64,000 nt of DNA, from positions 216,380,001 to 216,444,000 of the forward strand of contig OZ024740.1 in assembly GCA_964016885.1 (NCBI GenBank), given 5' to 3'. Every line of letters begins with the position of its first letter. Position 1 is the first letter of the stretch. Shown piece after piece: positions 42,062 through 42,413 of this stretch. Below the pieces are notes generated by a model. The model worked only from the letters and a program-made list of their open reading frames with translations. It made no database searches and was not told the origin of the DNA. Made by a program: the position numbers and the translations under genes. The stretch comes from Eledone cirrhosa (lineage: Eukaryota).

Positions 42062-42413
42062 GCACGTATCGGTTTACCGAGCATTTATTATAATGCTCGG
42101 TTTGTTTGTTTGTAAACAAACAAACAGCCCGAATTACGCCGTATAGTGTTTAGGCAACCACGTCACCTTTTTGTTCAACACTGACATAGGAACGATGTAC
42201 TAGTTTCAAGCTTATTAGCTATCGTCAGCATCGTATACCTTCCTGCCAAATGGTTGAATGTCTGAAAGTGTATACTTTCCTTATGCATATTAACGGCTGA
42301 GCAGCCTAATTTGCATATCGAGTGAGTTCAGTCGGCCGGGCACACCGAAAACGATAAATGGAATAGAATGAAACGAAATTTCATTTCTTACTCTTAGTAC
42401 GGCACTTACTTAA
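42062..42413 (-). mobile_element. CpG-retaining hammerhead-bearing insertion between microsatellite-like direct repeats
   Basis: Unique 350-bp segment flanked by ATGTAAGTATG..TATACGTACATACATATATGTATACAG at about 41974 and 42414; contains an intact hammerhead. Confidence 0.6.
42192..42234 (-). ncRNA. intact minimal type I hammerhead ribozyme motif
   Basis: ACGAUG-CUGACGA-U-AGCU(AAUA)AGCU-U-GAAA-CUAG-UA-CAUCGU: perfect 6-bp stem I, canonical core, palindromic CUAG loop III. Confidence 0.88.

Follow-up and report, generated by a model that had tools for sequence, protein, structure and literature searches.

What carries the hammerhead ribozyme found on the minus strand of a 64,000-nucleotide stretch of the Eledone cirrhosa genome (the window), how did it come to lie there, and is it likely to be active? 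A preliminary description, made from the letters alone, had taken it for a textbook-intact minimal hammerhead of the kind tied to Penelope-like elements (PLEs), sitting in a 350-bp insert. The reading favored here, at a probability of about 0.78, is that this is a solitary and recent copy of a 443-bp repeat that has no open reading frame (ORF) and bears a type I hammerhead, and that its family is likely to be a non-LTR retrozyme, moved by PLE machinery and predicted to cut as a dimer. Copy number, the tandem unit, the covarying fold and the insertion pattern are observations on genomic DNA; the mechanism is what we infer from them.

The hammerhead fold and its conservation

The fold comprises the following segments.

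42192..42234, minus strand: 43-nt hammerhead motif, from the sequence, with the predicted cut at 42198/42197
42188..42239, minus strand: type I hammerhead in its extended form, made up of the core, stems II and III and a 6-bp stem I prolonged by a UAU/U bulge and distal GG/CC pairs, from the alignment and pair counts
42208..42221, minus strand: stem II, with a basal U·U, three Watson-Crick pairs and the 6-nt loop UAAUAA, from the sequence (U·U in 68/72 copies)
42199..42204, minus strand: palindrome ACUAGU (6 nt), predicted stem III between two copies, from double changes in sister families and from energies

The sequence bears out the placing of the 43-mer on the minus strand (42234-42192), with its core, 6-bp stem I and GUA cleavage site at 42198/42197. 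"Textbook-intact" goes too far: positions 10.1 and 11.1 (42221 and 42208) are U·U in place of the usual G-C. The three inner pairs of the 4-bp stem II that had been drawn stand, the fourth being a U-A that narrows a 6-nt loop 2 common to all sister families. Nor is the ribozyme minimal, for beyond a bulge, UAU facing a single U, stem I carries on with GG/CC pairs (42239-42188), which covary across families, and then with another helix. The sequence standing in for stem III is palindromic, as had been noticed, over the 6 nt of ACUAGU (42204-42199) rather than the 4 nt of CUAG. With 6 bp in helix I, 4 bp in helix II, an internal loop 1 and a conserved loop 2, the ribozyme follows the canonical type I layout, in which the internal loop of stem I contacts loop 2 (PMC4209133, PMC3088659, PMC6155905); a corresponding contact between bulge and loop 2 would be expected in the window ribozyme. 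The G10.1-C11.1 pair of canonical type I hammerheads is absent here, and is unpaired in 5 of 12 family representatives. In Rfam the window motif has no match at gathering score (Hammerhead_HH9, 17.4 bits, E 0.044); a sister copy with G-C reaches 36.5 bits against HH9 (E 3.6e-8), still under the gathering score, and an E-value scan over 700 bp returned low-complexity matches only.

Minimal PLE hammerheads, as characterized in PMC4209133, have an unpaired nucleotide after A9, G10.1-C11.1, a long helix II and a short helix I. The window ribozyme differs in having neither the extra nucleotide after A9 nor G10.1-C11.1, and in having a short helix II and a 6-bp helix I with a defined bulge; it resembles the minimal hammerheads of PLE pseudo-LTRs (PMC4209133) in its palindromic stem III, predicted dimer cleavage and link to PLE machinery. 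The association with PLEs made in the preliminary description survives in the insertion pattern, which is PLE-type (see below), and fails in the class of ribozyme, which is the canonical type I of non-LTR retrozymes and not the minimal pseudo-LTR type.

The motif is not a chance occurrence, because the exact 43-mer is present in 1,663 copies in the 3.0-Gb genome and the reversed control in none; a downstream 23-mer has 2,591 copies. Looser patterns for sister families yield 23,857 and 14,415 matches (>38,000 together) against 7 for each control; the units of these families are 310-500 bp long, and some arrays exceed 30 units. The fold was examined in a gapless alignment of 12 representatives, hand-chosen from pattern-match loci and sharing kinship, so that counts against shuffles are not probabilities. 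In this alignment 95% of cells are paired, as against 28-44% in slid controls, and double changes affect 12 of the 15 pairs, both distal pairs included. Compensatory changes occur in all stems across the sister families; among the representatives, the distal stem I pairs alternate between G-C and A-U, the loop UAANAA is almost invariant, and the stem III palindrome changes yet remains palindromic in 11 of 12 (U-A 8, G-C 3 and A-U 1 of 12).

Conservation within the window's own family was followed in 54 copies anchored outside the ribozyme, 48 of them covering it. The 43-mer is identical in 27 of these 48, and the core is intact in 43. Differences number 5 in 552 core positions versus 458 in 11,792 outside; variants common to at least four copies fall at 0 of the 43 ribozyme positions versus 17 of 283 elsewhere, a contrast that is weak alone. 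A second sample, in which the U·U at the base of stem II was scored, also contains a double change in stem I, from A-U to U·G. On these sequence comparisons, protection of the ribozyme within the family is modest.

Other hammerheads abound. A 310-bp retrozyme-like family (L182-L210) forms long arrays; its palindrome is CGCG, and the basal pair of stem II is A-U or U·U. Many further families, whose stem II is long and whose palindromes read TATATA or TGCGCA, lie in the flanks (L002, L007, L016, L024, L036, L038, L041, L045 and others). The window itself contains an inverted pair of another hammerhead (37888-37924, minus strand; 38008-38044, plus strand) with a CUGAAGA core and a GUAC palindrome, situated in a short inverted element that ends in (TA)n and has similar copies in L011 and L044.

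The 443-bp unit and its insertion pattern

The insertion is laid out as follows.

41972..42499, minus strand: whole insertion, one unit and ~85 nt of the next, both junctions blurring into (TA)n (by BLAST, with 30 loci and one natural unit for comparison)
42057..42499, minus strand: full 443-bp retrozyme unit, no ORF (tandem period of 442-446 elsewhere; ORF scan)
41972..42056, minus strand: incomplete second unit that stops at the first of the fixed 3' ends, near unit position 93 (24/61 mapped 3' ends at 79-94)
42354..42387, minus strand: hairpin also present in the diverged sister lineage; the second fixed 3' end (unit position 150) comes after it (29/61 3' ends at 143-150; lineage alignment)
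42480..42530, either strand: (TA)n run at the 5' junction, the likely target site (sequence; same setting at other loci)

The insert therefore measures ~530 bp (one 443-bp unit and ~85 nt of the next) and not 350 bp, and a low-complexity stretch that had been read as flank belongs to the repeat, whose head-to-tail period is 442-446 bp. The family occurs both solo and in tandem; the arrangement suggested for checking, together with copy number, is tandem at other loci and solo in the window. Three joined units contain no Met-ORF longer than 38 aa in the sense and 47 aa in the antisense direction, and the GC content (0.35 for 42001-43000) is under the retrozyme limit of 50%.

That the insert is rich in CpG, young and little methylated, as had been suggested, is upheld by three measures: CpG observed/expected is 1.31, against 0.39 for the window; the copy departs from the family majority at 7 of 349 positions (2%; the median over 248 matches is 3.1%); and CpG transitions run at a median of 3.3% per site versus 2.1% at other C/G sites, just ~1.5-fold. 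Contigs of four sequencing runs over the stretch contain family variants only, and such contigs cannot show ends; where contigs stop near 42196, the stops were taken for a branch at the common variant at 42195. Elsewhere the window holds fragments of LINE-type reverse transcriptase (RT) frames (16250-18217, minus strand; 59560-60908) and, at 25000-31000, ~6 kb of simple repeat of very low GC and extreme GC skew.

How such copies end was mapped in 65 anchored copies, 61 with a 3' end in range. Of the 3' ends, 53/61 fall in the two zones tabulated above, nearly all running into (TA)n. The 5' ends are scattered, with 0/53 at the cut site and, in a second sample, 2/46 near it (p 0.43), which is no pile-up. 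Among 196 distinct loci (from 254 given, 27 edge-touching ones dropped; best matches or the loci listed first on contig 1, and so not a random draw), 71 include an inverted piece and 23 at least two same-strand ribozymes. The junctions sit in (TA)n, which obscures their bearing on any target-site duplication of >4 bp. The unit's sole consensus T4 run (window 42345-42354) comes 3 nt after the most frequent 3' end; this run is not kept in the sister lineage, and the proximity may be coincidence. A (TA)n target, fixed 3' ends, scattered 5' ends and 5' inversion are marks of PLEs (PMC8557442). Since the insertions continue across the cut site, they must have been copied from a circle or from a multimer left uncut; the missing pile-up of 5' ends at the cut fits circles, and fits uncut RNA equally.

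With the Hydra and Neptune clades of PLEs, as described in PMC8557442, the unit shares the (TA)n target, partial tandems, 5' inversion and an optional 3' extension; unlike it, those elements are autonomous, with RT and GIY-YIG endonuclease, and no sequence in common with the unit was found. A young Hydra-type PLE is present in this genome, with 927-aa open frames containing the motifs RWK, DKT and CxCX5C (L316, 1079-3859; L317), to which a Pfam search gave no match. It has two fixed 3' ends ~160 nt apart in (TA)n, as well as 5' inversion; its own hammerhead carries a U3-A8 core variant. At two loci (L434, L435; L321, L143) one and the same young Neptune-like family, whose copies are 96.6% identical, is fused head-to-head to a 5'-truncated unit with no (TA)n run between, the unit occupying the place of the PLE's own inverted repeat. 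A third head-to-head fusion and one tail-to-head join involve Hydra-like frames. The head-to-head fusions are possibly two-RNA insertions, but as a link to PLEs these three loci are suggestive only, since a (TA)n run lost next to an older PLE would also account for them. At L404 (600-1100; L437) a retrozyme without its usual 3' end directly abuts a Hydra-like frame of like orientation, possibly by template switch or deletion. An orientation bias of neighboring PLE frames was set aside as an artefact, as only the truncated 5' side brings a PLE frame near.

Might the unit be a detached pseudo-LTR of an autonomous PLE, as the preliminary description implied? The PLE-type insertion pattern would be accounted for, and Xenopus retrozymes are homologous to pseudo-LTRs (bioRxiv 10.64898/2026.07.22.740005). 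What lies upstream of a unit is, however, the previous unit, and 57 of 103 copies continue past position 94; a PLE frame upstream on the same strand was met in only 2 of 254 sampled loci, 725 and 888 nt off and of different clades, so that in these loci the unit does not take the form of a pseudo-LTR flanking an RT-endonuclease frame. The PLEs seen there carry other, minimal-type hammerheads, and the unit has no sequence likeness to three PLE tails. This origin is very improbable.

Predicted cleavage, singly or in pairs

Folded as a monomer, the ribozyme is predicted to pair its core CUG with the palindrome, which buries the core; this best fold would be inactive. For two molecules, the active double hammerhead (-20.2 kcal/mol) lies close to the best co-fold (-20.4) and below two monomers (-17.0). 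Within a natural stretch of two units, pairing probabilities are 0.5-0.87 for the swapped pairs of stem I and 0.13 for the dimer stem III, the latter value speaking against dimer cleavage. Two features weaken the window ribozyme, the basal U·U and the one-pair monomer stem III. Compared by features of the fold, the second of these, with its palindromic tetraloop, is that of axolotl HHR_Amex1 and the first, U·U at the base of helix II, that of HHR_Amex2; each axolotl ribozyme has one weak feature and the window ribozyme both. The axolotl ribozyme with a one-pair stem III cuts 6% alone and the one with U·U 22%, and both do better as dimers (PMC7229834). Because the window ribozyme combines the two, dimer cleavage is its likely mode, as a prediction from folding and analogy. 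A similar mode has reportedly been described for small PLE hammerheads by Lünse (2017).

The same facts lend themselves to a bleaker reading, that the fold is inherited, that cleavage in the U·U lineage is too poor to count, and that the family spreads through uncut read-through RNA and DNA-level growth of arrays. The U·U with its weak stem III and the absence of 5' ends piled at the cut are what it would lead one to expect, and among 9 Xenopus retrozyme dimers, 8 failed to cut in vitro (bioRxiv 10.64898/2026.07.22.740005). In a ~45-unit array of the window's family (L161-L163) 44 of 45 units have a broken core, in most cases through one shared C3 change. The single intact core and the higher-order period show that the array expanded as DNA, so that a ribozyme is not needed for long arrays to form. 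Against this stand the fixation of U·U in several amplified subfamilies (68/72) while stem I takes compensatory changes, the scarcity of differences in the core relative to the sequence outside it, and the axolotl precedent (PMC7229834), in which a U·U ribozyme cuts 22% as a monomer and better as a dimer. We regard spread by a poorly cleaving lineage as unlikely, and retain cleavage in pairs as the preferred reading for the family.

For the window copy itself, the preliminary description had proposed the best candidate for an active ribozyme, and one may go on to imagine a host-relevant ribozyme that cuts a local transcript. The motif is intact, to be sure. Its intactness follows from its youth, since 27 of 48 sampled copies are identical; no partner of the same family lies in the 64-kb window; the monomer is predicted to fold inactively; and the TATA-like box described below is mutated. 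A host role is accordingly the least credible of the explanations considered, and the claim to be the best candidate lapses. The window copy is a solo passenger, ordinary among thousands and not special, and it is unlikely to be a source element.

A candidate U6-like promoter and the proposed cycle

Two further segments of the unit lie upstream of the cut.

42306..42316, minus strand: box ATGCAAATTAG, which contains an octamer and resembles the element at -76 to -78 in the U6, U6atac and MRP genes of the host
42268..42274, minus strand: TATA-like box, TATACAC here versus TATATAC in the majority (190/207 copies intact)

ATGCAAATTAG lies 119 nt before the cut and TATATAC follows 42 nt further on; both persist in a sister lineage that is ~67% identical there, and the window copy is among the 17 of 207 with a changed TATA box. 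ATGSWAATKAG, placed at -76 to -78, and TATA, at -30, are shared by all five distinct host Pol III promoters that were examined (three U6, U6atac and MRP); 14 more U6 and 7 more U6atac matches, which look like retrocopies, are without the box. The motif was noticed in the repeat first, and the U6atac and MRP genes were found later (host snRNA promoter loci compared: L211-L213, L308, L333; L243-L259, L334-L344). The ATGSWAATKAG box is absent from host U1 and U2 promoters, whose layout is AATTAR at ~-92, TCAGT at ~-57 and a TATA-like run at ~-33. Scored with a matrix built from the five host genes, the unit reaches 28.7 bits, the window copy 25.0 and the sister lineage 24.2, within the leave-one-out range of 19.8-29.2; 0 of 300 shuffles reached the unit's score, and the background is 2 matches in ~1.3 Mb. 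The spacing from box to TATA, 42 (41 in the sister), is 4-6 bp shorter than the 46-48 of the host genes. Free local alignment of the U6 upstream region with units did not rise above shuffles, and the octamer/TATA block is absent from the 310-bp family.

Host transcription starts 30 nt past the start of TATA, and by U6 spacing the predicted start in the window copy would be 42244, 47 nt before the cut. A pile-up of 5' ends at this point (7/46 in a first sample) was dropped when a second sample, of new copies and with windows fixed beforehand, failed to replicate it (3/46, p 0.47). T runs in the unit are T4 only, against the T6-T10 in which the host genes terminate, and this would allow read-through. 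We give the block about an even chance of working as a promoter. Retrozymes seem, according to PMC7761336, to harbor no internal promoter. Newt satellite 2 and schistosome Sm-alpha, which are likewise hammerhead repeats, do have internal promoters, of the snRNA-type Pol II and the Pol III kind, respectively (PMC2220036, second-hand); unlike theirs, the block of the unit resembles host U6-type upstream (type 3) Pol III promoters. Literature on hammerhead-repeat promoters, covered in the main texts of mostly open papers, yielded no U6-type case.

Retrozyme spread has been modeled in the literature (PMC7229834; bioRxiv 10.64898/2026.07.22.740005), and the cycle envisaged here would run as follows. 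Transcription of tandem source loci, probably starting at the U6-like promoter inside the unit, would extend beyond a single unit; the ACUAGU palindromes of neighboring hammerheads would join as a 6-bp stem III, which together with the contact between bulge and loop 2 may offset the weak U·U; the paired hammerheads would excise unit-length RNA, to be closed into a circle by a host ligase. A Neptune- or Hydra-type enzyme would then nick (TA)n and prime at either fixed site, ~230 or ~285 nt past the cut, and copying round the circle or along uncut multimer would give 5'-truncated, inverted or longer-than-unit copies, the window copy being the product of such an insertion. A more specific proposal is put forward tentatively, the odds being somewhat against it: the retrozyme captured a compact U6-type Pol III promoter, situated 47 nt ahead of the cut, so that RNA begun in one unit would, once cut twice, form a promoter-bearing circle, which a Neptune-type enzyme would insert, at times along with its own RNA, as in the head-to-head fusions.

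The family is a new family of non-LTR retrozymes, an already known kind. Like those of coral, mussel and axolotl (PMC7229834), it combines a type I hammerhead with an ORF-less, low-GC tandem unit in the range of 150-450 bp, solo copies along with arrays, and co-occurring PLEs; unlike them, it is at the top of the size range, has a candidate internal promoter and would have a circular RNA only by prediction. The literature on hammerheads in octopus, in the main texts of mostly open papers, contains no description of the 443-bp family; for the giant squid, 235 Rfam hammerhead matches are on record (PMC6962438). As PMC7761336 has it, what transcribes animal retrozymes and which transposon mobilizes them are open questions. 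The block matching host U6, U6atac and MRP genes makes the first testable, and thousands of young insertions with junctions like those of named PLE clades make the second so; the family is also a natural series on the tolerance of hammerheads for U·U at the base of stem II. Should the captured-promoter reading be true, both the promoter class and the driver of an animal retrozyme would have a name.
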